A stretch of DNA of 35,499 nucleotides, taken from NCBI GenBank assembly GCA_032718475.1, contig JAUCBJ010000199.1, positions 1-35,499 on the forward strand, written 5' to 3'. Both the position numbers and the translations under genes were made by a program. The notes below the pieces were generated by a model that made no database searches, was not told where the DNA came from, and was given only the letters and a program-made list of their open reading frames with translations. Positions 8,062 through 35,499 of this stretch are shown piece after piece (positions within the stretch are counted from its first letter, which is position 1; every line of letters begins with the position of its first letter). The DNA is from Nemertoderma westbladi. Its lineage: Eukaryota > Animalia > Xenacoelomorpha.

Positions 8062-9428
8062 ATCAGTTTTTTAGCAGTTAAGGCTGCATCTAGATCCCTG
8101 AACAGGCAGTACTCTGCTAATCTACAGGAGCTAATAAACCAACAGGTTGATGCCATCAATGATGCTGACGACAGCAGGCAATCATCACAGGCATGGAAAT
8201 CGATCAATCTGCTTACTGGGCGGAAAAGCCAACCAACCACCAAGGTTAAGGCTGAATCACCAGCCGATCGCCTCAATGGTTGGAAGGCCCACTTTGAAAA
8301 GCTCCTCAATAATGACAGGGTATTGCCTGATAACTTTATAGAAGTAAAAGTGTCTGAGTCCGTACTCCCAGATATTCCCATTGGAGATATCTCCTTTACA
8401 GAAGTGAAGGCTGCTGCAAAGAGCATTAAGACCAATTGTGCCAGTGGAGTAGATGGTGTTCCCCCTGAGGTCTTTAAAATACCTGAGTGTTTAAAGCTCA
8501 TCTATCCCATCATAGTAGACATGTACCGAACAACAAGAGTCCCACAAGAAATGAAAACAAATAAGTTGGAGCCAGTTCCCAAGAAGGGCAACCTAACACT
8601 ATATGGATCTTTTCGGGGAATCTCATTGATCTCGATTGCTGCAAAGCTATACAATAGAATTCTATTAAATCTTATCAGGGATCCCATTGAGAGACTGCTC
8701 CGTGGAAATCAGAATGGGTTCCGTAAAGGTCGTGGGACCATGGAGCCCATTTTGGCACTTAGAAGGATAATTGAAGAGTTATCAAAAAAGAAAGACAGGC
8801 ATCTGGCTGTTATCTTTGTTGACTTCTTCAAGGCCTTTGATTCAGTCTCTCGCTCACGTATGTTCAGCATACTTTCATTATATGGGATTCCTGATGAAAC
8901 TATTGCAGCAATCAGATCAGTATACGATGGTTCAACAACATTTGTGTCTACTTTTGACGGTGACACAGAACCATTTGAAGTGTTATGGGGCGTCCTCCAA
9001 GGAGACACACTTGCACCATTCTTGTTCATTATTGTGGTTGACTATGTTCTACGCATGTCCTTAGATCATGATGGGCTGATGATAACTCCACCTACTGGCT
9101 CCAGAAGTCGAGGAAATCCTGCCAAGTACCTAACTGATCTAGACTTTGCTGATGACTTAGGAGTACTCTCAGAATCATTAGAGGGAGCCCAACGGCTCCT
9201 CAGCTCATTAGAACATGCTGCTTCTAGTGTTGGTCTTTTTATTAACTCCAGAAAGACCAAAATTCTGACAGTTAACTTTGAAAGTCCTCAGCAAGTCTCT
9301 GATCGGATGAGCATAAGCTCAAAGGATGGTATGCTTGAGCATGTGGACGACTTCTGTTACCTGGGATCATGGATCCGGAAGTCAGGTGAGGACCTTCGAA
9401 TACGTAAGGGAAAGGCATGGGCAGCGGG
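8062..9428 (+). mobile_element. Internal RT fragment of an RTE-clade LINE, stop-free, truncated at both ends
   Basis: Frame open from 8062: ASGVDG, FRGISL, NQNGFRKGRGT, FVDFFKAFDSV, GVLQGDTLAPFLF, LDFADD, FCYLGS, RIRKGKAWAA; breaks into unrelated L2-like sequence at ~9428. Confidence 0.85.
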
Positions 9429-11656
9429 TGTATGAGAGGGACTATAGCAAATTCAATAAAGATCATTTCATTAGGGACATAAATAATGCAAATTGGAAAG
9501 GGGTATATACAGATGATGACATAAATATAAATTATGATTATTTTGAAAATGAAATAGAACAAATATTAAATAAGCACGCACCAATAAAAAGGAAATTAAT
9601 CCATAGAAATAGTAATATAAACAAAAACAATCCTTGGTGGAATGACGACCTAAAGCGACTCTCTGAAATAAAAAATTCTGCTCTAATTAAATGGCGCCAA
9701 TCAAAAAGTGAAGTAGACTACAATCTTTTCAAAAAAGCACGAAACTCGTTTAACTCATCAAATAGGAACTCATCAATCTAAAAATAACTACATAAAAAAT
9801 AAATTTCAATCATCTGAACATCCTCGAACCAAATGGAAAATAATAAATTCCATCCTAAATAAAACAGTTAGAATTTGCACTATAAAAGAGCTTATAGATA
9901 AAAAGGGAACTCTAATCAAATCAAATGAAAGAATAGCCAATTTGCTCAATTCAACATATATAGCGATGGCCGAATTTACAGGAATATCGCAAACAGTAAA
10001 TAAACTTAACAAATTCCATATATCACCGGACGTGGAAGGTCAGCCCTGCTTTAGTTTTCATAATACAGATGAACTAACGGTGGTGTATGAATACTTGTTA
10101 AAAATTAATATCAATAAATCTATAGGCCCATCAACATTACATCCAAGAATTATCAAACTAATTGCACCACAAATAGCTCGATCACTGGTATACCTAATTA
10201 ATAAATCAATCACTCATTCAATTTTTCCCACTAAATTAAAGTTCACCGAGATAACTCCGGTTTATAAAAAAGGCCAACAAGACGACCCTGAAAATTACAG
10301 GCCAATTGCAGTAACAACCACACTAGAAAAAGTATTTGAAAAAATAATTTATCAACAAATAATTAATTATTTAGATAGAAATAAGCTAATAAACACCACC
10401 CAATTTGGGTTTCGTAAAAACTACTCAACTAGAGATGCACTAATATTCGCCACGGAGTCGTGGAGATAAAGTCTAAATAATGGCAATTATGTAGCTATAG
10501 CAGCCCTTGATCTTAGTAAGGCATTTAATTCACTAAACCACGATATGCTGCTAAACAAACTATCGGACCTTGGTTTCCATACAACAGCTACAGTACTAAA
10601 CTAATAGGTAGTTTTTTGTACCCAAGATACCAAAGAGTTAAAACCAACGGCATTAAATCAACATGGCAAACTTCAGTAAGAGGAATCCCACAAGGGACTT
10701 TACTCGACCCACTGTTATTTTTAGCGTATGTAAATAAACTAAGTAATAAATCAGACTTAGGAATAGTGCAATATGCAGATGACACCTTGCTATATTGCAC
10801 CAGTGAAAATCCAAACATAACAACAGAATGATTAGCCAATAAAAGAAAAACTCTTAACCTGAAATTTAATGATCTACACTTACAGCTTAACAATAAAAAA
10901 ACAGAATTTATGTTAATATCACCAAAACCACGTTCAGATACAATTGACAAAATAAACATGCTTCTGCCAAATAACAAAAGGATACTACTTACAATCTCGC
11001 AATCACAATCGATAAAATATCTAGTTGTATACATCGACAATACAATGGAATGGCGTGAGCACATAAGGAATATTTCAAATAAAATGACTCATGCAATATC
11101 AGGTCTCCCTCAAATAAGGGGACAACTGACAAAGCAGTGCAAATTATATTTATACAAAACACTAGTATTACCACACCATAACTATTGCTGCGAAATTTTA
11201 ACATCACTCCATAATATTCATGGTTTCAAAGAACAACTATATTCTCTAGAAAAAATACAAAATTATGGTCTGCGGGTAGTATATAGCAAAAAAATACAGG
11301 ACTTAACAGGAACAGAGTTACGGTCACAATCAAAGTTGCCTACACTAAAGGCTCTAAGGGAACACTTTGCACTAAAATACTTCTACAGATATATATACAA
11401 TTTATCAAAGCCATTTAACGACCTTACTCTACCATTTTTAAATAGACAGAACTCACCAGTCATAAATGCAAGAACGCACAAAATTAAAACACCGCTATCG
11501 AAAAATAACAAAGGATATAATAGCATAATTTTAAGCATGATAAGACTATGGAACTCCCTAGATGATAATTTTCGTAGTATCACAAAATATAGCACATTTG
11601 AAAATACAATCAAAAAACACTATTACTCCTTATATGAACGAGACGCAATTACTTAG
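9428..11656 (+). pseudogene. L2/CR1-group LINE ORF2 (linker and RT), multiple stops and frameshifts
   Basis: RDYSKF, NPWWN, KSIGP, NYRPIAV, QFGFRKNYST, LDLSKAFN, GIPQGT, QYADDT, KYLVVYID and RLWNSL in correct order across ORFs 9326, 9942, 10616 and 10910. Confidence 0.9.
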
Positions 11657-11915
11657 ATAAAAATAGATTAATGTAAAACACATTAGTTAGAAGTCAGTTA
11701 TACAATTATAAAATTTATTTATTTATTAAATTATCTTTAGGGGTGTAGTAACTTGAGGTAATGTAGGGTCTGGTGCTTAAAAACTACTGTGGTTGCTGAC
11801 GCTTAATCTTAGCCAATCATAAGCTACGGTGGGCCATTCCCTCCAGGCTTCCTCCACAATTGTTTTCTCAATTGTTGAGTTTTGAGATTAAAAGATAGAA
11901 TAATAATAATAATAA

Positions 11916-13465
11916 TTTATTTAAACACAATAAATGCTCTAGAACTAGACTGGAAGCATCTGGTGATTTGCCATGCGCTAGAAATTCCAATGCCCATTCA
12001 ACAGTTCTAGGAGAAATAATGGGTGGAATGGTTGTGGTACAGGTTTCTTGTATATTCGCTTTGAGTATGTTGAGCTCATCCTTGAGTTTGAGATCAGGAT
12101 TGCTATTGTTTCTCATCTCTTCCTTAATAACGGGTTGAGCTTTTTCCGAAGCTATTAGCTTATCTTTGCTATTGAAGTAGTTCCAGAATCTCCGCGGGTT
12201 ATTGTGCATTAGCCCAGCTTCCTTTTTGACTTTTGTGGCCAGTGCACTCTTTGCAAGAAAGTTTTTCAAGCGTCTAATTGATCGGCGAGATTCGTTATAT
12301 GCAGGTTTGTATATACTAGACTCATTCTTGTTATCATTGCTCCATAAGTCATATAGTTGACTGCAGGTTCTGATACGGCTCTTTAGTTTCGGAGATGCTC
12401 TGATGCGAAGATTCTTGGTATGTTGTCGAGTTGCAGTTCGTTTAGGTAAGTGATGGGCAGCCGCTTCATAAATGGATTTCTCAATATCTGATGCAAACAA
12501 TGTAACATCTGCAATTGTCCATTGTGATAATTGACTAGGTTGCACATTATAGGTTACTTTCAGTCGTCTAACAACTTCTTCCTGATATTGAGTTAGCATG
12601 ATCGAATTTACCTTTTCCCATGCAATATGTGGTTTGACTCTAAGTGTCCTAGGTTGAGTGGTATGCTTAACTATTGTATGGTTTGTTTTACAATGAGAAT
12701 CTAATAGGCATGACGATGTAGCATGTACAGGTTCATTATCAAGATGGAAATGAGCAACCACTGGTACATGATCTGAATATAGTTGGAAGTCATGCTCAAA
12801 TACTTTCCCTTTTGTTACACAATTGAGCATATGTTGATTGGTGATAATGTGATCTATGTATGAGAAACAATTACCACGAAATGTAATACAAGGTCCGGAA
12901 AATGGAGAGTAGGTATCAATTGCTACCAGCTCAGATTCTTTGAGGTAATTATGAAGTCCTCTTTTGCTTATTTTGAGTTTCCATTTCCTAGGACCTTGTA
13001 GGTTACCTAAGTCTGTGTTGTGTCAGCTAGGATTACGGGTGATGAATCGCTATGTACCTAGAGAATAGTACTAAGCCGCCCAACGTGGTCATTGTAGAGT
13101 GTGGAGTCTTTGGATGTGTCCGGGAAGTAGCAGCATGCCACTACAAGTGGCTGTTGGTATTTACAATAATTAGCACGGATTCCAACTATATCATCCTTAG
13201 AGTCAAACTGAGTTGTGTTGTTGAAAGCTGAAGTCCTATAGAACAATACTACTCTGCTATGTATTATAGTAGATGAGTTATTTATAGTAGTGAAGACACA
13301 ATCAAAGTCGTCATGTAGCCCCAACAGTAATTCCTTAGCTTCAAGCTTGTCTAACCAATGTTCCTATAGCGCGAGGACGTCCAACTGGCTGAGAAGATCT
13401 TTAACAGCATCGCTGCTTGAAGTGAAACCATGACAGTTAAAAGTTCCTAAATGTAAATCCCGTAT
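11916..13465 (-). pseudogene. LINE ORF2: APE endonuclease and linker up to RT domain 0
   Basis: LHLGTFNCHG, DVLAL*EHWL, CCYFP, SYIDHII, YSDHVPV, then NPRRFWNYF and EHL; contains stops and frameshifts. Confidence 0.85.
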
Positions 13466-19560: not shown

Positions 19561-20798
19561 CAGTAACTAAATTTAATTTTGCAATTTTTCAGATAACAAA
19601 ATATTCAACCGGATTCGAACTCGGGACTGTTATAACTCCTCACAATTCACCACTCACTCTCCCATCCAACCTCGAGAGAAAAAGGCGATAAATATCCGAG
19701 TTATAGCTGTTGAATGCCAAGTAATAACTATTCAATATCGATTTATTCATCATAACTGGTCGCAGATGTTTACAAATAGCTTGTGGTAGTATCAATTATA
19801 AATTATTGTTTATTGAATTCTATACTATAGCATATGTCACCAACGAGATCCAATTATTAACTAATGATTTCGATAGCATAAAATGCATATTAATTAATAC
19901 GAAATACATCTAACTAATAATAATAATCTACTTGTTCTACATACATTATCAGTACAATATTGACAGGTTAATTACGTTTGAATATAAGATGGAATGATAA
20001 TTAATGTTTAGATGTAGGGTATTGTTTGTTGTGAGTATGTAGACTACAAAAAAAAAAAAAATTCATTGCGCGCGCAATGAATTTTTTTTTTGGCTTATGA
20101 AATTTCTTCAGTAAATGCGAGACTGCTGTAATCATCTACTTTTTTTTTAGTAAAAAATAATAAACTTACAGTATATATGTTGAAAACCAAACATCACGCT
20201 ACAGAAAAAATATTAACTTAAAATTTTTCACAAACTTATTAACTGAAAACAGTATTTAGCATATATCCAACGTTTAATTTTACATTTTTTTTTTAGTCAA
20301 AGGTAGATTCACTGACATTGTTCTAGAACTTAATAGAAATCTGAGCTAGACATTGAAGCACTATCTTAAGGTAGGTGTGACAATGTGTGAAATATATTTC
20401 ATGTATTATGATCAAGTGAGATATTGTTATGATTATAAAAGCTAGTATGTTTGTTTAGTTAATAAAATAATAATAAGGTTATGAAGTCATATTATAAGAT
20501 TATAAGGTCATTCCATAATCGATACACAAATAGTATGTTACAACTGGAAATACAAGTGTTAACTACATTTGTCCTGGAAAATAAATAATCGACACACAGG
20601 AAGATGTTCTATTTACGCCACCTAGAGAAATGAATAATTTGGCGATTATCAAAGATGAAATACACTCTGCTCCCGCTGGGCGGCTTTATCCTGAATAAAT
20701 TTAGAAATGCCTTCAAAGGGAACAGGAATCTACCTTTGACTAAAAAACAAAATGTTAAATTTAATGTTGTCTATATGCTAGATACTGTTTTCAGTTAA

Positions 20799-23700
20799 CC
20801 CTTCTGTGTCCCTCAAAATAACATACACATTAGTCCCTTGGGGTCATATGTGACCCCATGTACGAAATGTATGTGTAAGAGCACAAACACCAAACGCCAG
20901 AGTGAGTCATTTGTTCAGGCAAGAACCAGGACCATGATTTACACCGAATTACATGAAAATAGGACAACATGCCATCTATGTGTGTCCGTCTGTCTGTCCA
21001 TTTGTAAATTTTGTAAACAACATAATAAAGATATATTATTGTTAGTAGTTATAATTAGTATAATTTTTAACATTTTTTTGGAAAAAATGTAGAAAATCAA
21101 TAAGACTGTCTTTTTTATGAAAGATTTCGAGGGATACTAATGCATGTCTGTCTAGACATAGTATTGTCTGTCCGTCTGTCCCACTCAGTATTTGGTAAAC
21201 AGCATAATAAATGAGCATTTCATATGTAAATAATTACAATCAGTATACAATTTCTGAAATTGTTTAGGAGACATAGACATTTACATGCAAAACTAATATA
21301 CTTAATTTACGAAATTATTGAGCAGTACAATCAATACAGATGGGAAATCCATGTTCACTACAAACAAAGTTAGTGCAAACTGAACAACATAAAAATGTCT
21401 TTATGTCCTTAGAACGATCACACTTATAACATCGCCCTCTCTTCCCCTTCCTACACTCAGTGATTGAGATTAGCTTTGTTTGGTCATTCGAAGTACTCTT
21501 GTGTTGTACTCCTTGTACTCTATCAACAATTTGTATGGCAAATGGGCAACGTGGACGGGTGGAACGCTGTCGAATCCAAATGGACACTAATTCCTGTCCT
21601 AGCTCTGTCAGATAAATTCGACGTCGGTGAAGTTGTGTTTTGTTCCATTCAGGAAAAATGTCCCTGTAAATAACACATGCGTTGTATGCTGCTATATCAA
21701 TGATGTTCGAAAAAACTACCATAGGCCACCTCTTCGTACCACGCTTTACACTATATGTAGACAATGATTGATCACTGGCATCAACTCCACCTTTATATTT
21801 GTTATATGACAGAATAATATCCGGCTTTTTATCATCACGTGAGGACAAAGATGCATCAGCATGCATTGTGCTCAACAGCGTTACAACCTTGCCGCGTTTG
21901 GGACAATAAGAAACAATTGTACAATCTTCAGTGTGAGCAAATATGCTGCTGAACCTTTCCCGACCTTTGGTTTCCACAAATTCTGCAGGTAATTCTGGCT
22001 TATTTTTGCGCATTGTACCCACCACCGTCTGATTGCGCTTTAGAAGTTCCTGGGATAATGAGTATGAAGTAAAAAAGTTATCAACAGTGATATTTCTTCC
22101 AGGTAGACCTTTAGTCGACTCCAATACAACCCGCTGACCTTGATTCTTCTCTACATTATCACCCTGTTTACCAGTATAAGGTTCAATATTATGAATATAG
22201 TTTTTATCACCAGTGGTCGTAACCCAATTTTTTAAACCATAACGTGCTGGCTTGTTTGGCATATATTGACGGAATGAACATCGCCCTCGAAATGCCACCA
22301 ATTGTTCATCCACACAAAGATTTTCTGAAGGAACACATGCTAGAGGTAACTGCTCAACAAATTTTGTCCATATATTTCGAATAGCTGCAAATTTGTCTAA
22401 ATCACGTCGCCTTTTTGTTTTGTCATCAAACCTCACAAATCTACAAATTTGTTTGAATCGTTTCAATGACATAGTAGCGCGAAAAATAGGTCTACCAAAG
22501 TCAGCTGACCATAGCTGAGTTACATGTTCAGTGGAAGAGCGAAATACACCACCAAGAATCAACAACCCAATGTAGGCCATAAATTCATCGAATATAATGG
22601 GTTTCCAATTGTCACCAAGATTTCTATGTGCCTCATTATTTGTCATTTCAAGTATAATATTAATCATTGTAATAGTAAAAAATATATAGAAAGAGGAAAG
22701 GATATCTCTACACTGACATCGAGCATAACGTGTAGGCCCCGGTGTATTATGAATTACATTTCTTTGAGGAGTCTTTTGGGAAACATTGTATGGAGTTTTT
22801 CGCCATGAAATCCCCTTTTCAGCGTTTTTACCTTTATGTCTTGATTTATAAAATAAAGTACTGCTACCCAATACGTTATCATCATCGGCAGTATCGACAT
22901 CAGGATCAGACTCTGTATCTGACAAATTCACTTCTTGATCTTCATCAATTGCGACAGGAGCATCAGATTCATCAGCTTCTTCTTCACTACTGCCAACTCC
23001 ACCTCCTTCAGCATCACTGTCACTATCGTCAATTTCATTAGTCATTGAAAATGTGGAAAAACTGAATGGAATTCGTTGCACACGGGTCCGTACTGGGTAT
23101 TCTCTTCTACCGGTAACCATTTCCACATTTTCGGTACCTGAAGTTGAACTGGTTCCTGCTGCAGCACTATCATTCTCCATATTGCAGTAATGATAAATAA
23201 TGGTCAAAGAATGTGAAAAACTGAAATATTATATTGAAAAGTGTATGTACAGTACATGTACAGCATAGGCCTAATCTCGAGAATTCAATACACAATTATT
23301 ATACAATAACATAGAATACATTATTATTTCCCTTGTACTCTGGTACTACCGGTACTGCGGTAGCTGACTAGCTTGCTACTACTGTACTAGCAGAAGCAGA
23401 CTACAGGACAACTGGCTGATTGGACTAGGTCAGTACTGCAGTAGGTCTATACACAATACCTGAATACAGCAATACACACACACACTGCAGCACTGACACA
23501 GGTCACAGATACAGACAGCAGGACAGACAGCTTTAGCTGTAGGCCTATTGTATTTATTTGTATTATTATAATTATAGCATATAGGGTAGCCTAGGTCTGT
23601 AGGTCAGTAGGTATTTCTTATTGGCAGAATGGTGAAGGAAGGGCCTGACACCTGACAGTCGCCTCTCCAGCTCTCAATACACAAGACTGCAGTACTGCAG

Positions 23701-24216: not shown

Positions 24217-25115
24217 TTAATAAGTTTGTGAAGAATTTTAAGTAAATAGTATATAAGTTAATATTGTTTCTATAGGGTGATGTTTGGTTTTAAACATATA
24301 TACTGTAAGATTATTATTTTTTACTAAAAAAATAGCTGATTACAACAGTCTCACATTTACTGTAGAAATTTCATATTTTTGAATAAATATAACAGTACTT
24401 ACTCAGTTTTAAGGCTTACATTTTAATTTTCACATTTTTTACTCAAAATAGATAGATAGACAGTTTGTTGTCAAAGAATAGTTGAGGAATGTCTCGCAAA
24501 GTTTATTCATGGAATTTTTCAGTGATCTAATTTCGCAATAAAAAAATGTCAAATTAATAGTGCTAAAACCCAGCATCACTCTGTAGAACCAATATATTAT
24601 AAAAAATGTAATATACTATATTAACACTGACTGCTATATCTAGCACATACTCACAACAAACAATACCCTACATCTAAACATTAATTATCATTCCATCTTA
24701 TATTCAAACGTAATTAACCTGTCAATATTGTACTGATAATGTATGTAGAACAAGTAGATTATTATTATTAGTTAGATGTATTTCGTATTAATTAATATGC
24801 ATTTTATGCTATCGAAATCATTAGAATAATTGGATCTCGTTGGTGACATATGCTATAGTATATAATTCAATAAACAATAATTTATAATTGATACTACCAC
24901 AAGCTATTTGTAAACATCTGCGACCAGTTATGATGAATAAATCGATATTGAATAATTATTACTTGGCATTCAACAGCTATAACTCGGATATTTATCGCCT
25001 TTTTCTCTCGAGGTTGGATGGGAGAGTGAGTGGTGAATTGTGAGGAGTTATAACAGTCCCGAGTTCGAATCCGGTTGAATATTTTGTTATCTGAAAAATT
25101 GCAAAATTAAATTTA

Positions 25116-25663
25116 TGTGACGGGATCCAAGAGAGATCCCGGTTTATCCGGTGTTAGTTCACGCGTCCCCGCCGTGTATAAAGAGTAAATGAGTTTGTGC
25201 TGTTCGTCGTATATAATATTTGGGTATACAGATATAGATATAGGTATAGATATGAGATAATATGATTGTTGTATACGGAAGGCGGGATACGGTAACTAAA
25301 GTCCCGGTCCTTCCCTAGCTAAACTATGTAACCTAAACTAGCACCAATATTGCACTGAGATAACTGAATTGATATGATTACTGCCAAGTGGCTATATTGC
25401 ACGGTTGGCCTTTTTACTCTACCTAATCGATGCCTTTCCCCCCTCTGATTGGTTGATACCCTTGTTGGCGCCCTTTGGAGTGTTCCCGTTCACTCCACCT
25501 GTTCTCTCTGGGTTAGGGGTTTGGCCCCTGACCCTCATTGTGTGCTTCTCCTTCCCATTCTCATTGGGATGGCACGAGTTTGTTAATTACCCAATCTCGT
25601 GGCTCCCAATATTGCTTATCGGCTTAACTTTATGGGGTGTTAGCGGGATTGAATAAGCTAACA
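25116..25663 (-). repeat. 3' LTR (548 bp)
   Basis: Minus strand TGTTAG...GTCACA; preceded by PPT; outer end coincides with loss of inverted-repeat homology at 25115; CCAATCAG and TAAAAAG inside. Confidence 0.85.
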
Positions 25664-25672
25664 CTCCCCCCC
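25664..25672 (-). other. Polypurine tract
   Basis: GGGGGGGAG immediately 5' of the LTR TG on the minus strand. Confidence 0.85.
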
Positions 25673-26373: not shown

Positions 26374-28920
26374 CTATCTGTTCCTCTGGGGATACTTCCC
26401 CCTGGCGTCCTCTTCCCTGGGTCGTTTCTTGGTTACCACCGTTCCTCTGGGATCCGCTTTCTGCTTTCGGACCTTCGCCGCCACCTCCCTGCTGATCCCG
26501 GTCGTTGGCTCCTTGGGCGCTGGTGTTATTAGTGCCCGATATCGCTTCGCCGGTGGCCCCTCAGAGTGGCCCGGTCGTCTCCCTCTGGTGGCGTCCCATA
26601 GGATAATTTTCATTGCTTGCAGTACGTGCTCCGCCAAGAAATCCCTAAACTCCCTTCGGTTCTGTGGCGTCCACCTGTCCAAATATCTTTGCGTGTTCAT
26701 CACTCCGGCGTACGACGCCGCCATTGCTACCTCTTGGTAGGTAAACGGTAGCCTCCGCTTTATGATTTCCATGTGTGTCTCCTGATTGATAAGGAAGAAA
26801 CCCCACTTGAACTCCTGGGCCTTCATGCGCTGGCGCGTCATGGCCCCGACGTCGGCCCACTCCTCGAATCTTGTGAACTTCTCCTCGTCGTTCATCCAGT
26901 CGCACTCGCATCCGTAGTGTCCCCGAAAGTGGCACTTTGGACAACGGTTATGCAACCGTGGACACGCCCCCATCCTGTGGCTTGGCTCTCGGCAGTAGAG
27001 ACAAAAGGTTCCCTTCTGGAACCGGTACAAGCAGCTCCTTTCCTGGTGGGTCTGTCTCCCACAGTAGTCGCAGCCGAGTACCAATGTCTCCCGTCCCACC
27101 TCGTCTTTCGTCCCAAGCGATCTCCACGGTCTGTGGAGTCGCTGGTAGGCGAACTTCTCCACGTTGGTGTCTCTATTTACGTCGATCTCTCCGCCCCTCT
27201 CGGGCATCGTCTCCCCGAATACTATCCGTGGTGCCGTCCCCGGTTGCTTGCCCAACCTGATAGTGCTCCCCGCGAAATCCATCGCCGGCTCCTCGTGCAC
27301 CCAGGTCCGCTTGCCGGATCTGTTCCAGAAGGCCCTCGCCCCACTGGCCGTCACCACCCTTCCGCCAACCCAGTCCGTGTCCGAGTGGCCTATCCTCTCG
27401 ATGGGCGGCATCTCTCCGAACTCATCGTCGTCGTCCTCCTCCTCTGGCAGTGACTCCAACCCTGGTATCCCAATGGATCCACTATGTCCCTTCCCGCCTT
27501 GGCTCTCGCCCGTAGCTCTCCATCCCTCTAGCTCCCTTAACTTCCTTGGCGGTTGGTCGCACTCGGCGCCCGCTGGTATGGGCATCGTTTGCAACCCCGA
27601 CGTCGACTGTTTCGGCGATCCCACCGTCCATCCCAATTCTCGCCCTAGAGACTCCCCCGAACTCCCTGATGAAGTCCAATGAAGTTCGTCTAAGCCTGCC
27701 TGTTCCTCGAAGCCGTAACTCTGCGTCCTGGCCTCCTCTTCCCTCTCCTCTGCTTCTATCCTCTCCCGTCTAGCGACTTCTTCCAGTCGCTTTGGTTCTC
27801 GTCTATCCGTCTCTAGCTGCTCCCATCTCTGATACGGTGTATCTGTCTCCCCGTCTACCAGATGCCGGCTGTCGTAGTACACCGACTCGCCCTTCAGCCC
27901 CGGGTGGTCTACCAGACCGTCAAAGGCCGTCTTAAAGGCTCTCCTGTAGCTTAGGGGTGATCCCGATAACAGAAATGCCCCTGGTTCCCTCTCGATAACC
28001 ATGGTCATGAATAAGTTAAGCAAACTTATCATCATCCAGTCCTCCTGCAGGATATATCGCTTCTGATATACCTTTATCGCTCCCCTGCGGAATTGATATA
28101 CCTCCTGCTTTCCCGGTCTCGCTCCCCACTTTAGCGAGTTCGCTAGTTCTGCTCCGTATTCTTCCCTAAACTTCCCCCAATCCATCGGTTTGTGGCATAT
28201 GAGCCCCAATAGCTGGCCCATTGCCACCGCCCCGCATTGGCCTGTGTTTTCGACTACCCCCAACCCATCCGGTGCCGTCATAGCCATAAAGACCTTCTGC
28301 ATATCCAGGAGGTTGGTGGCGTCCGGACCGATGATTCTCTCCGCATCCTCGCGAATCGCCGATCCCACTTTCGTCGTCGACTTCTCTCTTACCAAGACTT
28401 GTACCGCTTTCGGTAACCGGTTTAATTTCGGCCCGTCCTTCTTCCCATACGTTCCTAGATCGAATAAGAAGATGTCCCCATTTGGCGCGGCCAAATGTAG
28501 GAGTATGGTCCTCGCCGACCCCGCCGTTCCTCGTCTCGAACCCGCCTCGTCTTCCACGGTTCCCTCGTCGTCTAGGATCATATATCCTCCTCTGTTGACG
28601 GACTCTATGAATCTCTTCCAGTCCTTCCTCGGTGATTCCCTCGGGTACTTCGGAATCCCGAACTTCGCCTCGTCCCCTTTTACCACGTAGTGGAAGTGTT
28701 GGAAGATCGCGTTGTCCAGCGACGGCGTCCCGTAGGTCCCGACCAGCCGCTGTTCGTGCATCTCCCGGAAGTGATCCTGCAGCGCTCGTGCCGCGTGACC
28801 CCTTTCCAACCTCTCGTAGTATCCTCTCATCTTCTCTTCCGGATGCCTCTCGGTGAAATCCACCAGTATCTCCTTTCCTCCTGACTCCGCCTTTCTCTTT
28901 CTGATCAACTTGCTCGCCAT
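26374..28920 (-). CDS. Accessory retrotransposon ORF: DEDDy (WRN/EXD/MUT-7-like) 3'-5' exonuclease plus three CCHC zinc knuckles
   Basis: Intact 848 aa. MILDDEG (Exo I), LLHLA..G.IFLFDL, LP.....V..KSTTKVGSAIRED (Exo II), NLLDMQ, QKRYILQED (Exo III). Then acidic linker and CDYCGRQTHQERSC, CLYCREPSHRMGAC, CPKCHFRGHYGCEC. Confidence 0.8.
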   Translation of the reverse strand: MASKLIRKRKAESGGKEILVDFTERHPEEKMRGYYERLERGHAARALQDHFREMHEQRLVGTYGTPSLDNAIFQHFHYVVKGDEAKFGIPKYPRESPRKDWKRFIESVNRGGYMILDDEGTVEDEAGSRRGTAGSARTILLHLAAPNGDIFLFDLGTYGKKDGPKLNRLPKAVQVLVREKSTTKVGSAIREDAERIIGPDATNLLDMQKVFMAMTAPDGLGVVENTGQCGAVAMGQLLGLICHKPMDWGKFREEYGAELANSLKWGARPGKQEVYQFRRGAIKVYQKRYILQEDWMMISLLNLFMTMVIEREPGAFLLSGSPLSYRRAFKTAFDGLVDHPGLKGESVYYDSRHLVDGETDTPYQRWEQLETDRREPKRLEEVARRERIEAEEREEEARTQSYGFEEQAGLDELHWTSSGSSGESLGRELGWTVGSPKQSTSGLQTMPIPAGAECDQPPRKLRELEGWRATGESQGGKGHSGSIGIPGLESLPEEEDDDDEFGEMPPIERIGHSDTDWVGGRVVTASGARAFWNRSGKRTWVHEEPAMDFAGSTIRLGKQPGTAPRIVFGETMPERGGEIDVNRDTNVEKFAYQRLHRPWRSLGTKDEVGRETLVLGCDYCGRQTHQERSCLYRFQKGTFCLYCREPSHRMGACPRLHNRCPKCHFRGHYGCECDWMNDEEKFTRFEEWADVGAMTRQRMKAQEFKWGFFLINQETHMEIIKRRLPFTYQEVAMAASYAGVMNTQRYLDRWTPQNRREFRDFLAEHVLQAMKIILWDATRGRRPGHSEGPPAKRYRALITPAPKEPTTGISREVAAKVRKQKADPRGTVVTKKRPREEDARGKYPQRNR

Positions 28921-29399
28921 TCCGAACGTTCACTCGCTCACCTGCAAGGTGGTGCCTTACCAAGGCGCAATACAGATGAGTGATGTATCTAGGATGTTCT
29001 GTACGGTTCGATAATGGCCTATTTCTTACTTAACTGCGCCTTTTAACCTAAATTATTACTAATTAATTTTGAAGCTAGTAAATGAGCGTAATTTACGATT
29101 TCTGTCCCTTACTTTTATTATGTTCTAGAATAACTTTCCTTGTGTTGCCATTATTTGTAACTTTCAGCCCTATTCTATTTATTTATCTATTTAATTTTGA
29201 TTCTACTGTCCTACTACTTACTACTGCCTATGGATTATTCTATTCTCTAATCCACATTCTGGCCTACTCTGTGGGTCTATGCAGTACAGCAGTATGCGTC
29301 GTGTGGCCACACGATTTACCCAGCTGTACTCATATGCCCCCCTCTCGCTACTAACTGCTAACTAATATCTATATCTTATATACCCCTTTTACCTCTTAC

Positions 29400-29925
29400 T
29401 CTCTCTCTTCTAACTAACGGTACTACGTACCCTCTAACTCTTCTCTAACTAACTAACGGTACTACGTACCCTCTAACTCTCCTCTAACTAATGGTACTAC
29501 GTACCCTCTAACTCTCTGACTAACTATCGGTACTACGTACCCTCTAACTCTCTAACTAACTAGCGGTACTTACGTACCCTCTAACTCTCTAACTAACTAG
29601 CGGTACTTACGTACCCTCTAACTCTCTAACTAACTATCGGTACTACATACCCTCTAACTCTCTAACTAACTATCAGTACTTGCGTACCCTCTAACTCTCT
29701 AACTAACTATCGGTACTACGTACCTTCTAACTCTAACTAACTATCGGTACTTACGTACCCTCTAACTCTCTAACTAACTATCGGTACTACATACCTTCTA
29801 ACTCTCTAACTAACTATCGGTACTTACGTACCCTCTAACTCTCTAACTAACTATCGGTACTACGTACCTTCTAACTCTCTAACTAACTATCGGTACTACG
29901 TACCTTCTAACTCAAACTAACTATA
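29400..29925. repeat. About 36-37-bp minisatellite (14 units), each with a GGTAC-loop-GTACC hairpin
   Basis: Unit CTAACTCTCTAACTAACTATCGGTACTACGTACCCT between pol and the accessory ORF. Confidence 0.95.
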
Positions 29926-30072
29926 TTCTGCCTACTTACTGCGTACCTACTATGTACTTATTAATTTTATTTTTTTTATTTTCTATTTTTTGTGTGTGGG
30001 AAGGGCGTCTCGCCCTCAATCCCACCCCCCTCAGTCCAAATCTTGGACGACTAATACTAAAGACAAACTCCA

Positions 30073-33000
30073 CTAAGGTGCCCCTTCTAGCAGACAGCAT
30101 TTTCCCACAGCTCTCCTGTAGGTTTTTCTGTCCTTCGCACCTATCTTACCACCTATCCACACTTCTACCGATCGGACTCTTCCGTCCTCGTCGGAGTAAG
30201 TGCCTACAACTCTCGCCAACCGCCACTGGTTGTTGATGATAGTATCATCCGTAACGATTACGAGATCTCCCTCTCTTAACTCCCTATTTGGCTTCCTCCA
30301 TTTACTCCTTTTATGGAGTATGGGTAGGTATTCCTCGACCCACCTCCTCCAATACTCTGTGCTTATTGCTTTAGCGACTTTCCAACTTTGGCGGGAGTGT
30401 ATGTCATCTGGGTCTACACCCCGCATATCGATGGTCGCTGGCCTTTCCATTAGGAAATGGCTAGGCGTTAGCACGTCTAATGACTCAGGGTCATCATTCT
30501 CCGGATATAGCAGTCTGCTATTAATGATCCCCTCGCACTTCGCAAGTACTGTCCGTAAGACATCCTCAGTGACCATGTGGGTGTTCATTAGCTTCGTCAT
30601 TAGACGCTTTGAACTGCCCACCAGTCTCTCGACGCATCCTAGTGTATGTGGTGCATACGGCGTCCTTCTCTCCCACTTTACTTGTGGTCGTCTCATGGCT
30701 GCCCTGACTTCTTCTCCCTCCAAGATGTCCAAGGCCTCTGCCATCTCACTCTCTGCGCCCACAAAGTTGGTGCCGTTGTCGCTGTATATCACTGCGATCG
30801 TCCCACCTTTGCGGTCTCTAAACCTTTCTAAGGCATTAATGAATGCTGATGCGGTTGCATCTTGGGCGAGTTCTATCCCTACCGCCCGTGTGTTGTTGCA
30901 TACGAAGATAATGCCGTAGCGTTTCTCCGTGTGTCGCATCACTTTGATCTTTATCGGCCCGAACATGTCCACACCGCAATGCGTAAATGGCGGGTCGTGC
31001 TGTCTTACCCTACTCGCCGGTAGTGGCGCCATCTCCTGTACGGCTCGCTCCTTCTTCGCTCGTCGGCAGGTCTGGCACTGCCCCACTACCGCTTTTACCT
31101 TCTTCCTCAATTGTTTGACCCAATAGGTCCTCCTTATCTCTGTGAGGGTTCGGTTGGTGCCCCCATGTAATATCGATTTGTGGGAGTCCCAGATAATCTG
31201 GTGGACTATTGGCGATCCTGTGGGAATGATGATGGGTTTCGGTGGTACGACTATGCTGTTGTTGTATCCCACCCTAGAATTCATTACTAGAATCCCGTCG
31301 TCATTGAGTTGTGGCGACAGCGTAATCAGCTCGCTGTCCCGTCGGAGGTGCTGTTGGTTACCGACGCGTTCCACCTCGTCGCCATAGTTCTTCCGTTGTT
31401 CATAGCGGATCACTGCCTTGGCCGCTCCTTCCAGATCTATGGTTGTCCTGATCTTCTTGTCCTTGCCAACTCCCGCAAGGAAATTCCCGAAGGCTCTCCA
31501 GTACGCCACTAGTTTCTTGGTCTTATACCAACTAGAGCTGTATCTGAGGAGTTTATCCGTCGGGTTATCGCACAGTTCTTCTGGTTTAGGTTGCACGTCC
31601 CTTATCTCCCTCACCATCTGGGAGTATATCTCTTCTCCCTCTGAATCTCCCTCTTCTCCCTCTGATACTGCTTCTCCCGAGCCCGGGTCCACCTTTCTCA
31701 TCGGCGACCAGGCCTCCTTGTCGTTCAGAAACTGTGGCCCGTGTTGCCACAATACTTCCTTCTTCAAGAAAGTGTGGCGTACCACGCCCCTCGATAACAA
31801 GTCCGCTGGGTTCTCGTCCGTTGGGCAGTAGTGCCACCTTTCCAATTCTGTGGTCGCCCTTATTTCGTCCACCCTATTCGCGACGAATATATGGTATCTC
31901 GTCCTTTCGTTATGTAGCCAACCAAGCACTACCATGGAGTCCGTGCAGTAGTGTGTCTCTACTATGTTGGGAATAGTATCCACTAGGTAGGCTGTGGCTC
32001 TAACTCCTAGTCTCGCAGCTGTCAATTCTAACTTGGGAACTGATGCTGAATCTGGGGGCGTTGACTTTGCTTTGCTAAAGGCTAATCTGGGCTTATGTGC
32101 CCCCTCTCGTTGTACTAAGTAGAGTGCCGCTCCGTACGCTTCCAACGACGCGTCAGAGAACATGTGTAGGTCCAGATTCGTCATGTTCCCATCCGGGAAA
32201 TACACCCGTGGCATGTTGTATGTTCCCATCTCCTCCAAGTCTCCTGTCCACTTGCTCCACTGTTTCTTGATTTCCTCTGGTACCTCTACGTCCCACTCAT
32301 CCTTTAGTTTGTATACTCTCTTGAGTATCTGTTTCCCCGTGACTAATAATTGGGATGCTAGGCCTAGGGGATCGTATATCCTTGCTATATACGATACATA
32401 GCCCCTCTTCGTGTGGATGTCTGCGCCCTCCTGGCTCAGCTGATACTTCAGTTCGTCTGTCTCTCTATCCCACACGATTCCCAATGCCTTCTGTTGAAAT
32501 TCTGTTCTCTTAATCGCCATGTCCTGCCCTTTGGCTGTTGTGGGATTGTCATTGGTCGATTCTGGTCTCCTGTCCTCTATCGCCTTAATAAATTCTTCCG
32601 AACTGGATTGGAATTTGGTCAGGTTAAAGCCGGATCCTTTTAGGATGTCGCGAACCTCGCGCCCTGTGTCCAGTATCTCCTTAACCGTATTTCCAGACTC
32701 CATTCCGTCGTCTACGTAGAAGCCGCGTCGAATCATATCGACGGCCCTACTGCTGTATCTATCTTCCTTCCCCTTCACTGTGTCTCTCACTGCCATAGTC
32801 GTCGTAAATGAAGACGACTTGGCCCCCATGTTCTGTACTACCATCTTATATGCCGGTATTATCAACGGTTCTTCCTCGCCGTTATACCATAAGAAGCGTT
32901 GACTGTCGCTATCTTCTTCCGTTACACGGACTTGGTTGAACATGCCTTCTATGTCGCACGTGAAGGCGTGTTTCCCATTTCTGAATCTAAGTAACACCTC

Positions 33001-33795
33001 TATGCCCGAATTGTATATGTTTGGGCCTTCTAACAGGTAGTCGTTTAAGCATTTTCCATCGGTCTTTGCTGATGCGTCGACTACCATCCGTAGTTTACCT
33101 TTCTTTGGGTCTAAAGCCACGTGTAGTGGCAGGTAATATGTCCTGTCCGTGTTCGGCTCGTCGACCGGTAACTCCACGGCCCATCCTTTCTCGACGTACT
33201 TCTTAATTGTTCTTTGGATGTACTCATTCTTCTCGGGGCTCCGTTTTAGTGTTTGTTTCAGCTTGCGGAGTCTCGTGAGTACCATCCCTCTATTGTCGGG
33301 CAGCGGTATCTTCGGTAGTTTCCATACCATTCCTATAGTATACCGCCCCTCATTGCATGTCATCGATTCCTCCACGCTTTGTAAAGCCTGCTTGTCTTCT
33401 ACTGAGGTCCCGACTCCGGTTTCTTTCAGTCCCTCGAAATCCTGTCTGAGCAGTCTTTTAAGCTGCTCCTCTGCTCCCTCGTCACCCATTTCCTGCATTG
33501 TTCCCGCGAACATGCATCCTGATGTCTCCGACATCCTAAATGGTATCTTGCTCTTAATTGGACCACTCAGCGTCCACCCGAATGGTGTTAATATGGCCAC
33601 CGGGTCACTCTGCTTGTCTTCGCCGAAGACCGTTTGCATTCTTTCGTGGGCCGTTGGGCAGTCCATACCTACTATGATGGACACCTTCCTAACGTCCACG
33701 TCTGGGATTGAGAAGTCAATGTCGTCCAGGAATTTATACTGCTCGACCTCGATGTTGGTTGGCCGCCTGGCATTGATATTAACCTGTGATAGTAA
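30073..33795 (-). CDS. BEL/Pao pol: protease C-terminal part, RT, RNase H, integrase
   Basis: TPFGW, LRMVVDAS, CLNDYLLEGP, DIEGMFNQV, FYVDD, YDPLG, FSDAS, PKLEL, TDS, NPADLLSRG, H..H..CQTC, GVDMFGP, SDNGTNF, VERLV, WRRWVEEYL. Stop-free but separated from gag-PR by an insertion. Confidence 0.95.
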   Translation of the reverse strand, partial: LLSQVNINARRPTNIEVEQYKFLDDIDFSIPDVDVRKVSIIVGMDCPTAHERMQTVFGEDKQSDPVAILTPFGWTLSGPIKSKIPFRMSETSGCMFAGTMQEMGDEGAEEQLKRLLRQDFEGLKETGVGTSVEDKQALQSVEESMTCNEGRYTIGMVWKLPKIPLPDNRGMVLTRLRKLKQTLKRSPEKNEYIQRTIKKYVEKGWAVELPVDEPNTDRTYYLPLHVALDPKKGKLRMVVDASAKTDGKCLNDYLLEGPNIYNSGIEVLLRFRNGKHAFTCDIEGMFNQVRVTEEDSDSQRFLWYNGEEEPLIIPAYKMVVQNMGAKSSSFTTTMAVRDTVKGKEDRYSSRAVDMIRRGFYVDDGMESGNTVKEILDTGREVRDILKGSGFNLTKFQSSSEEFIKAIEDRRPESTNDNPTTAKGQDMAIKRTEFQQKALGIVWDRETDELKYQLSQEGADIHTKRGYVSYIARIYDPLGLASQLLVTGKQILKRVYKLKDEWDVEVPEEIKKQWSKWTGDLEEMGTYNMPRVYFPDGNMTNLDLHMFSDASLEAYGAALYLVQREGAHKPRLAFSKAKSTPPDSASVPKLELTAARLGVRATAYLVDTIPNIVETHYCTDSMVVLGWLHNERTRYHIFVANRVDEIRATTELERWHYCPTDENPADLLSRGVVRHTFLKKEVLWQHGPQFLNDKEAWSPMRKVDPGSGEAVSEGEEGDSEGEEIYSQMVREIRDVQPKPEELCDNPTDKLLRYSSSWYKTKKLVAYWRAFGNFLAGVGKDKKIRTTIDLEGAAKAVIRYEQRKNYGDEVERVGNQQHLRRDSELITLSPQLNDDGILVMNSRVGYNNSIVVPPKPIIIPTGSPIVHQIIWDSHKSILHGGTNRTLTEIRRTYWVKQLRKKVKAVVGQCQTCRRAKKERAVQEMAPLPASRVRQHDPPFTHCGVDMFGPIKIKVMRHTEKRYGIIFVCNNTRAVGIELAQDATASAFINALERFRDRKGGTIAVIYSDNGTNFVGAESEMAEALDILEGEEVRAAMRRPQVKWERRTPYAPHTLGCVERLVGSSKRLMTKLMNTHMVTEDVLRTVLAKCEGIINSRLLYPENDDPESLDVLTPSHFLMERPATIDMRGVDPDDIHSRQSWKVAKAISTEYWRRWVEEYLPILHKRSKWRKPNRELREGDLVIVTDDTIINNQWRLARVVGTYSDEDGRVRSVEVWIGGKIGAKDRKTYRRAVGKCCLLEGAP

Positions 33796-33798
33796 CCT

Positions 33799-34744
33799 GA
33801 TACAGATAATAAGCAGTGATTTTTATGTTTTAAACTATAACGTTAGTGTTAGCCTTACAGTGTATCAGTATGAAGCTGAGTAAACATTCGCCTTATAAGC
33901 ATACAACCTCCAAAGTATTAATGTTGGACGAAAGATTTAAAAATAAAATACAGTGCAGTAGTACTCTGTAACTAACAGTCATTCAGCTTGCACTACATGT
34001 CAATCACCTATAAAACATTTTGAATGCCACAGTGATTATTAACCCAATACAGATAATAAGAAGTGATTTTTATATTTCAAACTATAATGTTAGTCTTAGC
34101 CTTACAGAGTATCAGTATAAGGCTGAGTAAACATTCCACCTTATAAGCATACAGCCTCCACAGTATTAATGTTGGCATAATGTAGCCAATACACTGTATA
34201 CCTAATAGTCATTCAGCAGGGGGAAGAGTTATTCAGCTGAGGCGGTAATAGATTGCAAACTAAACCAACCAGTTGGCAGCCTCATCGATTTATACTAAGC
34301 CTGTGTAGAACCACAAACTAAATCAACCAGTTAATATTTGCTTTGACAGAGAGTGCAGGGCCTAAACAAATAGTATGGGTGTACTAAGTACAATAATCTT
34401 GGCAACCTCATCGATTTATACTAAGCCTTGTGTAGAAATGCATTACATAAGCCATTTTTCATCACGGCACCAGCTGTCATTGGTGTTATTTTACCATTGC
34501 GCCAATGGCGTTTTTTCGTTTATGTCTATTTTTCGAGCCCACGGCTCATGGACGAAATAGCGGAACATACCTGAGACCTTAGAATCGCGGTATCCAGCCG
34601 CTGTGAAAATTTCATCAAAATCGTTAGAGTAGTTTTGGCTGTAGATCAGCCAGCCAGTCAGCCAGCCAGTCAGCCAGCCAGTCAGCCAGCCAGCCAGTCA
34701 ATCAGCTAACAATTCTTACAGTAATCAAGTCTAACGACAGCCAC
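33799..34744. mobile_element. AT-rich insertion splitting the protease region; Helitron/Helentron-like non-autonomous element
   Basis: Abrupt compositional shift; internal duplications (33800 vs 34047, 34280 vs 34406); AAATTTCATCAAAATCG followed by (CAGC/CAGT)n at 34647-34705. Boundaries approximate. Confidence 0.55.
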
Positions 34745-35499
34745 TGCTGCAATTGCGCACCGTCCTGTTCTCATCTCCAGGATCTCATCTTTGCTAGAGA
34801 TGGTTGTTACCGCTATTCTGCTTGGCCTCGTTCTCAATCCTATCTCTTCGGCCACCCATTCCTCGACTAATGTGAAGGCAGCTCCACTATCAACCAGCAT
34901 TAGTGTTGTTACTGAACGATTGCCTTCCCCGATCACTCGCACGGGTACTACTCCAAGTAACACCGTTCCTCTCTTCTTCGCCCCTACTGTGCTCGTCGCC
35001 ATCGTTTGGCCTCTCCTCTGACCAAATTTTATCGGCTTCTCCTTGCACTCCCTTGCTCTATGTCCACTCATTACACATCGCGAGCAGATTCTATTGCTCG
35101 ACGCATAATCTATCTGATCTTGCCTAGGTAGCGCCTGCCAGTACCTGCAGTTCATGGTTTGATGAAGCGCATTTGCGTGTAGCTGGCATTTGCTCTTTGG
35201 GTCGTAGCCCTCTTTATACAATGCATTGCGTATCGCAGTTGCGTTTGTACCAAAGTCCCTACTATTCTTATTGTTCGGGTTCAGCCTACTGGACGTACTG
35301 GGGTTATGTTTATTCGTGTTGTTATTGTTTCCCTGTCCGTTCCATGGTGTTGTCTTATCCTCGGCTAGCTGTGGACTTGCAGTCCCCTGCGTCGCTGCAT
35401 ATGGCAATGATAGCCTGAGTCTCGGTAATGCGTTTGATGTATTGTGCTCTGGTTTCAGTCTATGGTAATCTGTCTTCGGTCCCTTTCCCAGGCTATCTT
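34745..35499 (-). CDS. BEL/Pao gag C terminus and aspartic protease N-terminal part (partial)
   Basis: Frame open to the window edge; CQLHANALHQTMNC, CSRCVMSGHRAREC, VLLGVVPVRV, MLVDSGA. Confidence 0.9.

Follow-up and report, generated by a model that had tools for sequence, protein, structure and literature searches.

Background

Juno, Vesta and Athena are gypsy-like clades of retroelements. In bdelloids, the Juno and Vesta LTR retrotransposons and the Athena/Terminon elements are reported to carry an ORF3 of the DEDDy type (PMC5408684, PMC6431247). In Trypanosoma brucei RNase D (TbRND), a DEDD exonuclease is followed by CCHC fingers that are described as binding RNA and raising cleavage, with all four fingers supporting the latter (PMC7797062). 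With regard to genes located behind pol, UGA-C and CAR-YYA have been given as readthrough contexts, and pol and env of SIRE1 are separated by a stop; for Tca2, the same article reports that a similar junction gave no readthrough in yeast (PMC2194720). The named sub-clades of BEL/Pao include Bel, Pao, Tas, Suzu, Sinbad, Dan and Flow. Five deep environmental BEL clades (BEC1-5) have been reported from plankton (PMC5029228).

We describe here a third gene, ORF3, in a BEL/Pao retrotransposon of Nemertoderma westbladi. It lies on contig JAUCBJ010000199.1 (assembly GCA_032718475.1), in a stretch of 35,499 nt that was analyzed as a whole and is referred to as the window. Its product combines a predicted DEDDy exonuclease domain with CCHC zinc knuckles. 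A DEDDy third ORF is already known in bdelloids; what is new, within the literature searched, is the BEL/Pao host and the co-diverging fusion to a knuckle module. No BEL/Pao exonuclease ORF was reported in that literature, with repeat databases (Repbase, Dfam, GyDB), subscription journals and supplements outside its scope, and a survey of BEL/Pao nowhere uses the word ‘exonuclease’ in its main text (PMC3118150). The preliminary description of the window had likewise given no precedent for this fusion in BEL/Pao.

Methods

A HMMER search of 1.84 billion protein representatives was performed, with 72 matches at E<=0.001. Metagenome contigs were scanned with the back-translation of a knuckle motif common to 60 of 76 family proteins; this gave at least 120 loci, 80 with flanks and most from few assemblies. 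The motif had one match in the window and none in 100 shuffles. Since it carries no information on pol, the test of linkage between ORF3 and pol is independent of the search. The 29-row family alignment is referred to as A1. The catalytic census was based on 88 aligned domains, not de-replicated, of which 16 were gapped at a scored position, leaving 72 scorable domains. LTR evidence in the window is confined to the 3' side, the 5' LTR being beyond the window end.

Results

The window element

By its pol domains, the window element is a member of BEL/Pao (Belpaoviridae). Its pol ORF matched Peptidase_A17 (3e-38), DUF5641 (8.5e-23) and integrase in Pfam, and the order Asp protease, RVT_1, Peptidase_A17, integrase and DUF5641 is that of BEL/Pao (Table 1). 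Pol has 921 relatives at E<=1e-100, with PF05380 present in those listed; it is at most 35% identical to any relative among the matches listed and forms a long branch in trees. This copy of the element is broken, because approximately 1 kb of other DNA splits pol, and ORF3 is intact all the same. A purine tract occurs ~700 nt beyond the end of ORF3, with the candidate 3' LTR next to it, and in aligned contigs other flanks start at ~25113-25115, near the edge of that LTR. A similar G-rich tract lies ahead of TG in half of the related loci with sufficient downstream DNA (29/58). Contig cover of ORF3 in the window's species is as continuous as that of pol and is multi-copy. In a putative RNA run, whose type was guessed and which is given no weight for expression, cover of both ORF3 and pol was patchy.

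Table 1 Features of the BEL/Pao element in the window (positions in nt; residues refer to ORF3)
Feature	Position	Strand	Remarks
Candidate 3' LTR, TGTT...TCACA (TG...CA), 548 bp	25116..25663	-	no partner within the window
Polypurine tract, 9-nt purine run	25664..25672	-	
ORF3	26374..28920	-	848 aa: exonuclease-fold domain, disordered linker, triple CCHC knuckle, helical domain, basic tail
Helical domain behind knuckles, residues ~678-745	26686..26889	-	pLDDT 81-97, no named family
Three CCHC zinc knuckles, residues 617-630, 640-653, 660-673	26902..27072	-	
Predicted disordered linker, residues ~398-611	27088..27729	-	pLDDT <50
Predicted DEDDy (RNase D/EXD/WRN-type) 3'-5' exonuclease fold, residues ~74-312	27985..28701	-	
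Non-coding spacer, pol stop to ORF3 start	28921..30072	-	1152 nt, stops in all frames
Tandem array, ~36-bp units, within the pol-ORF3 spacer	29410-29921		
BEL/Pao pol: reverse transcriptase, RNase H (Peptidase_A17), integrase, DUF5641	30073..33666	-	
Non-coding, partly repeated DNA (~1 kb) splitting pol, protease versus reverse transcriptase	33790..34750	.	edges approximate
Gag end (knuckle) and aspartyl protease	34751..35499	-	element continues past the window end

Architecture of the ORF3 protein

Searched alone, ORF3 had zero Pfam matches. Its N-terminus is basic and hydrophilic, and its 19-residue hydropathy mean peaks at only 1.18, which argues that it has no transmembrane helix. No viral fusion protein is present among the listed BFVD and PDB fold matches of the ORF3 model, and an envelope identity was rejected on both grounds. 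The three knuckles share the form C-x2-C-x4-H-x4-C, and the helical domain behind them has the conserved pattern F..xA..G..T..R...WGF. All 11 invariant columns of A1 fall within this knuckle-helical module, at the knuckles. NLS-like basic runs were found in 29 of 38 complete ORFs, a weak signal given that shuffled sequences average 0.9 per protein. The frequency of T at third codon positions is 0.08 in ORF3 and 0.12 in pol, versus 0.42 in a neighbouring piggyBac ORF.

These results agree with the preliminary description on several points. It had placed an 848-aa ORF on the strand of pol, ahead of the polypurine tract and 3' LTR, and ORF3 is indeed open with a tract and candidate LTR downstream; it had noted a base composition like that of the element, and the third-codon make-up resembles pol and not the piggyBac ORF. 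Its three CCHC knuckles at about 26900-27075 were recovered, and its view that the protein is not an envelope stands.

Predicted fold and catalytic residues

The N-terminal domain of ORF3 is predicted to have a DEDDy exonuclease (DnaQ-like) fold. In the ESM Atlas, DNA_pol_A_exo1 was assigned in 25 of 30 matches (0.94). The best match of the A1 profile was human EXD2 (E 2.5e-12), the helix ahead of Exo I included, and T. brucei RNase D was matched over both domains together (E 3e-07); Egalitarian (0.0028) and WRN (0.28) were weaker. The alignment-based model from A1 contains two confident domains joined by a disordered linker (pTM 0.47), and its core strands and helices have pLDDT values mostly of 70-94; the single-sequence model reached a pLDDT of only 31.5. 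Foldseek returned 17 PDB matches of the model at E<=0.001 with T. brucei RNase D on top; RNase D, Rrp6, Nibbler, Egalitarian, EXD2 and EXD1 are represented, and the top matches are all DEDD exonucleases. The Atlas, the EXD2 profile match and Foldseek thus bear out the DEDD-type motif order and fold that had been proposed beforehand. Pfam DNA_pol_A_exo1 was matched in only 2 of 29 family members, and the gene may have been overlooked because Pfam is nearly blind to it.

The motifs of the window copy are Exo I D117-x-E119, Exo II D192 and Exo III Y289-x3-E293. The preliminary description had read Exo III as YILQED, departing from YxxxD; the alignment instead gives Y289-x-x-x-E293. All four acidic positions are filled in the window copy, since E293 is a D-to-E change in the normal register. 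In this column the acid is D in 43 and E in 21 of the 88 aligned rows. Against a nuclease role of the window copy, its Exo III acid is E rather than D, a form whose activity is putative. Among the 72 scorable domains, D-E-D-D occurs in 31 and D-E-D-E in six, including the window copy, so that the catalytic set is kept in 37; Exo II is E or T in four, and Exo I is lost in 31. A nuclease or a pseudo-nuclease had been suggested; both kinds appear to exist within the family, and the window copy keeps D-E-D-Y-E.

Family members and linkage to pol

All 72 HMMER matches were made by the knuckles and the domain that follows them, and many of the longer ones have an N-terminal domain that aligns with window residues 74-312. 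Unlike HMMER, word-index protein searches with ORF3 and with A1 returned nothing. The knuckle motif had no matches in viral contigs. Of the 80 flanked loci from the motif scan, 76 matched the knuckle-module profile and 62 had the exonuclease upstream. A BEL-type integrase was located upstream of ORF3, on the same strand and within 5.5 kb, at 44 of them, and 42 of these 44 have the exonuclease. In the remaining 36 loci, upstream DNA was too short in 27 and the contig was filled by a long ORF in four; three are a near-identical decayed stand-alone copy (L008, L032, L072), and L012 is a decayed copy with pol absent across 9 kb. L071 was rejected as a bacterial chance match.

A Pfam scan of 81 ORFs found no other type of reverse transcriptase directly upstream. 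For L041 and L056, a link to gypsy was weighed and discarded: the rve-type integrase of L041 is downstream, and an integrase of BEL type lies upstream in both. ORF3 is enclosed by paired repeats in L013, L022 and L023, and in L047 and L059 the knuckle module is present with an undetectable exonuclease. Judged from these loci, ORF3 is linked to BEL pol throughout a lineage and is not a one-off capture.

Descent and selection

Distances for ORF3 and integrase were strongly correlated across 31 elements (Mantel/Spearman 0.88), with none of 999 permutations as high. The integrase tree contains ten of the 11 strong splits of the ORF3 tree, strong splits never conflict, and a 14-element clade is present in both trees with support of 99 and 100. 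The 13 scorable members of this clade are all without Exo I; the dead L015 falls outside it. An unrooted RT-RNase H tree separates the window and 25 ORF3 loci from 14 other BEL pols taken from among the best-scoring ones (95/89). In that tree the window has a long branch and lies, by path, nearer to the other BEL pols than to the ORF3 loci. A single origin of ORF3 is possible on this tree and no more, because the window is long-branched and nearer to other pols, which may or may not have a third gene.

Pairwise dN/dS of the exonuclease was 0.04-0.51 in 15 of 16 pairs, with one saturated and all values rough at dS ~1. Seven pairs of dead enzymes from the 14-member clade spanned the same range (0.04-0.51), and the knuckle module gave 0.02-0.40 in 13 of 15 pairs. 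Within the window's own family, 29 of the 40 best-supported among 78 differences in the exonuclease region were synonymous, versus 33% expected (transitions; P 5e-7); these 40 variants leave the catalytic residues unchanged, and no indel is listed. By the trees, ORF3 has long been passed on vertically as the third gene of a divergent BEL/Pao group, and by the substitution rates it is under purifying selection, dead-exonuclease lineages included. The preliminary description had proposed looking for linkage to BEL pol in other copies and for dN/dS among them; the former is seen in the 44 loci with an upstream BEL integrase, and the latter, mostly 0.04-0.5, indicates purifying selection.

The pol-ORF3 junction

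ORF3 of the window has its own ATG, and the spacer holds 46, 49 and 36 stops in the three frames; the 46 in-frame stops rule out readthrough in this copy. In ten of the 36 relatives in which the end of pol and an exonuclease are both present, the ORF3 frame continues directly past the pol stop for 450-840 nt. The in-frame junction stop is TGA in all ten. Such junctions were found at 9 of 15 TGA-C loci and at 1 of the 21 others; none of the 15 TAA/TAG loci has one. A Fisher test overstates this contrast because the loci are related. CAA-TTA follows the stop at two in-frame junctions. The in-frame spacers have little protein conservation. The other 26 relatives are not in frame behind a single stop, and most members have their own start. 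Eight of the ten in-frame loci fall in the group with lost catalytic residues. Together, the junctions suggest that in a sub-lineage ORF3 may be produced as an extension of Pol by UGA readthrough, which we treat as a lead and not as a result, because the loci are related and GC-rich.

Discussion

We propose, at about even odds (a probability near 0.5), that ORF3 serves the RNA-protein particle of its own element as an accessory protein that binds RNA and, in some lineages, also trims 3' ends. This reading is drawn from the constancy of the knuckle-helical module, which persists in members with a dead or undetectable exonuclease, and from the analogy with TbRND. The knuckle module would bind the element's own RNA and, in lineages with catalytic residues, the window copy among them, the exonuclease domain would trim RNA 3' ends. 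If ORF3 works like T. brucei RNase D, single-stranded RNA may be gripped by the knuckles and its 3' end fed into a two-metal active site; this hand-over may not transfer, since ~210 disordered residues part the two domains of ORF3 and the linker of TbRND is short. The essential job could be binding, in the assembly, protection or 3'-end shaping of the element's particle, with cutting optional. Loss of Exo I in 31 of 72 domains, conservation of the dead clade and the exonuclease-less L047 and L059 lead us to infer that catalysis is optional. In the sub-lineage, UGA readthrough would yield a Pol-ORF3 extension that could carry the protein into the particle.

A wider picture is offered tentatively, as one that we consider possible and less than probable: an undescribed branch of BEL/Pao in aquatic animals may have possessed, since its origin, a third core gene for a particle-associated ribonuclease or RNA-binding protein, which one sub-lineage may have turned into a pseudo-nuclease made as a readthrough extension of Pol, and which may shape or shield the element's own RNA against host small-RNA surveillance.

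The main rival to the particle-accessory reading is that ORF3 counters host small-RNA silencing, its catalytic forms degrading piRNA/siRNA or their precursors and its dead forms serving as decoys for host EXD1, Nibbler/MUT-7 or Maelstrom-type partners; we hold this to be somewhat unlikely. The fold is common to Nibbler and EXD1, yet the best sequence match is EXD2 and neither of these two. For bdelloid DEDDy ORFs, Rodriguez et al. raise a role in silencing and point to inactive DEDD derivatives that act in piRNA biogenesis (PMC5408684). An own start in most members would release a free protein, and the NLS-like runs in 29 of 38 complete ORFs, weak as they are, point the same way; however, a diffusible suppressor needs no fusion to Pol, which is probable at 10 of 36 loci. 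Vertical descent and purifying selection would fit a counter-defence gene too, although the trees of 31 elements give no sign of ORF3 swapping among elements and dN/dS is <1 in every finite pair (a pairwise, not a site-level, measure). On balance, comparison of the family members favours a role on the RNA of the element itself over that of an anti-piRNA weapon.

It is improbable that the exonuclease works on DNA or RNA-DNA hybrids during reverse transcription, whether in proofreading, in trimming of cDNA or primer ends or in hybrid clearing. EXD2, the closest profile match, is reported both to digest and to protect RNA-DNA hybrids (PMC13425236) and to cut DNA or RNA depending on the metal (PMC6648332), and fusion to Pol would set the domain beside the reverse transcriptase and integrase. 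However, the enzyme appears to be dead where that fusion is commonest, because eight of the ten in-frame loci belong to the Exo-I-less group. Less plausible still is an adaptor of the Egalitarian type, by which element RNA would reach the germline nucleus or the oocyte. Egalitarian is a structural match and a weak profile match, its solved complexes include one of Egl with an I-factor RNA signal (by structure title), and dead versions of ORF3 are conserved; yet the match is limited to the exonuclease domain, catalytic residues are retained in about half of the family, and a BicD- or dynein-binding part is not among the identified parts of ORF3. That ORF3 is cargo of no effect, a neighbour by chance or a host gene next to the element is scarcely credible. 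The stand-alone decayed copy (L008, L032, L072) and the pol-less L012 have to be set against the linkage at 44 of 80 loci, the agreement of the trees, the low dN/dS and a multi-copy cover that is no less continuous than that of pol.

A conserved, co-diverging third gene of nuclease type implies that a diverse part of BEL/Pao has an extra, unexamined step in its life cycle. The family also has built-in controls, with catalytic, dead and exonuclease-less members and with separately started versus likely Pol-fused forms. The role of retroelement DEDDy ORFs, which the bdelloid work left open, becomes testable because these controls lie within a single family. The knuckle motif is a simple marker with which further copies of the gene can be found.

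Comparison with known systems

Belpaoviridae with an env-like gene share with the window element the order of pol domains, the polypurine tract, the size range of the LTRs and a third gene after pol; the family profile contains gag, pol and env-like genes only, whereas ORF3 is a predicted soluble protein with a nuclease fold (PMC8742986). The junction resembles that reported for SIRE1 in that a single in-frame UGA, mostly UGA-C, parts pol from the third gene at ten related loci; it differs in that the window copy is without such a junction and that readthrough in its relatives is predicted from sequence alone.

Human EXD2 (PDB 6k17) has D108/E110/D171/Y242/D246 reported at the positions of D117/E119/D192/Y289/E293 in ORF3 (PMC6648332), but is described as having a mitochondrial outer membrane anchor and a swapped dimer (PMC6648332, PMC13425236). 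ORF3 was not accepted as an EXD2 orthologue, as it has no transmembrane helix and only the exonuclease domain matches. TbRND, with solved structures (PDB 7c42-7c4c), has the same arrangement of an N-terminal DEDD exonuclease and C-terminal CCHC fingers (PMC7797062), a cellular parallel that the preliminary description had not drawn. That article describes a cellular enzyme of ~350 aa that trims guide RNAs in mitochondria and whose four fingers follow a short linker (PMC7797062), whereas the knuckles of ORF3 number three, its disordered linker is long and a helical domain is added; shared ancestry of the fusion is not implied.

The bdelloid ORF3 is the closest counterpart within retroelements, being an RNase D-like DEDDy third ORF after pol, described as having no transmembrane domain and as carrying a D/E variant of the tetrad, in that case DEED (PMC5408684). 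Its hosts are given as the clades Juno, Vesta and Athena and not BEL/Pao, and the terms ‘CCHC’ and ‘zinc knuckle’ are absent from that article (PMC5408684), whereas the BEL/Pao ORF3 has a constant knuckle module. Finally, the bdelloid gene is reported to have been gained at least twice and exchanged across element classes (PMC5408684), in contrast to the BEL/Pao ORF3, which co-diverges with the integrase of its own element.

Pol-ORF3 junctions

At ten related metagenome-contig loci (L007, L021, L029, L031, L034, L065, L068, L069, L076 and L080), a single TGA separates pol from an in-frame ORF3, the third gene of the BEL/Pao element. The stop context at most of these junctions is TGA-C, and TGA-CAA-TTA occurs at two of them. 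The arrangement of the reading frames suggests stop-codon readthrough from pol into ORF3 at these loci. In L037, L062, L006 and L043, the ORF3 frame instead overlaps the end of pol, with a TGATG stop-start at the overlap in L043. In the window copy, the tandem array between the two genes differs in unit number between the contigs compared. A splice-site-like word, CAG-GTGAG, is located ~20 nt upstream of the window ORF3 start.

Repeats, mobile elements and variant third ORFs
Feature	Location	Remarks
Long inverted arms	window 19568-20040 and 24645-25115	99-100% complementary; segment 19568-25115
piggyBac-like transposase ORF	window 21315-23180	DDE_Tnp_1_7, 3e-71; between the two inverted arms
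Candidate non-LTR retrotransposon reverse transcriptase fragments	window 8521-11656, 11868-12830	nested and broken; by inspection only
Tandem array	window 29410-29921	~36-bp units; within pol-ORF3 spacer
Third ORF of BEL element	L047:3341-6529	knuckle-helical module
Third ORF of BEL element	L059:6880-9648	knuckle-helical module

Genomic context and variant architectures

One arm of the inverted pair enclosing the piggyBac-like ORF adjoins the BEL LTR end. L008, L032, L072 and L103 represent one near-identical, decayed, stand-alone copy of the ORF3 gene, which is split by inserted sequence and surrounded by host-like DNA; pol is absent from the 0.9-1.9 kb upstream.

No exonuclease was detectable in the third ORFs of L047 and L059, in which the N-terminal part differs. 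ORF3 is very long (1300-1600 aa) in L005, L051, L052, L015 and L043, with large N-terminal extensions that had no match in Pfam. In P0121, a protein member of the family, the knuckle-helical module (CCHC knuckles plus helical domain) occurs twice in tandem, together with a degenerate exonuclease part.
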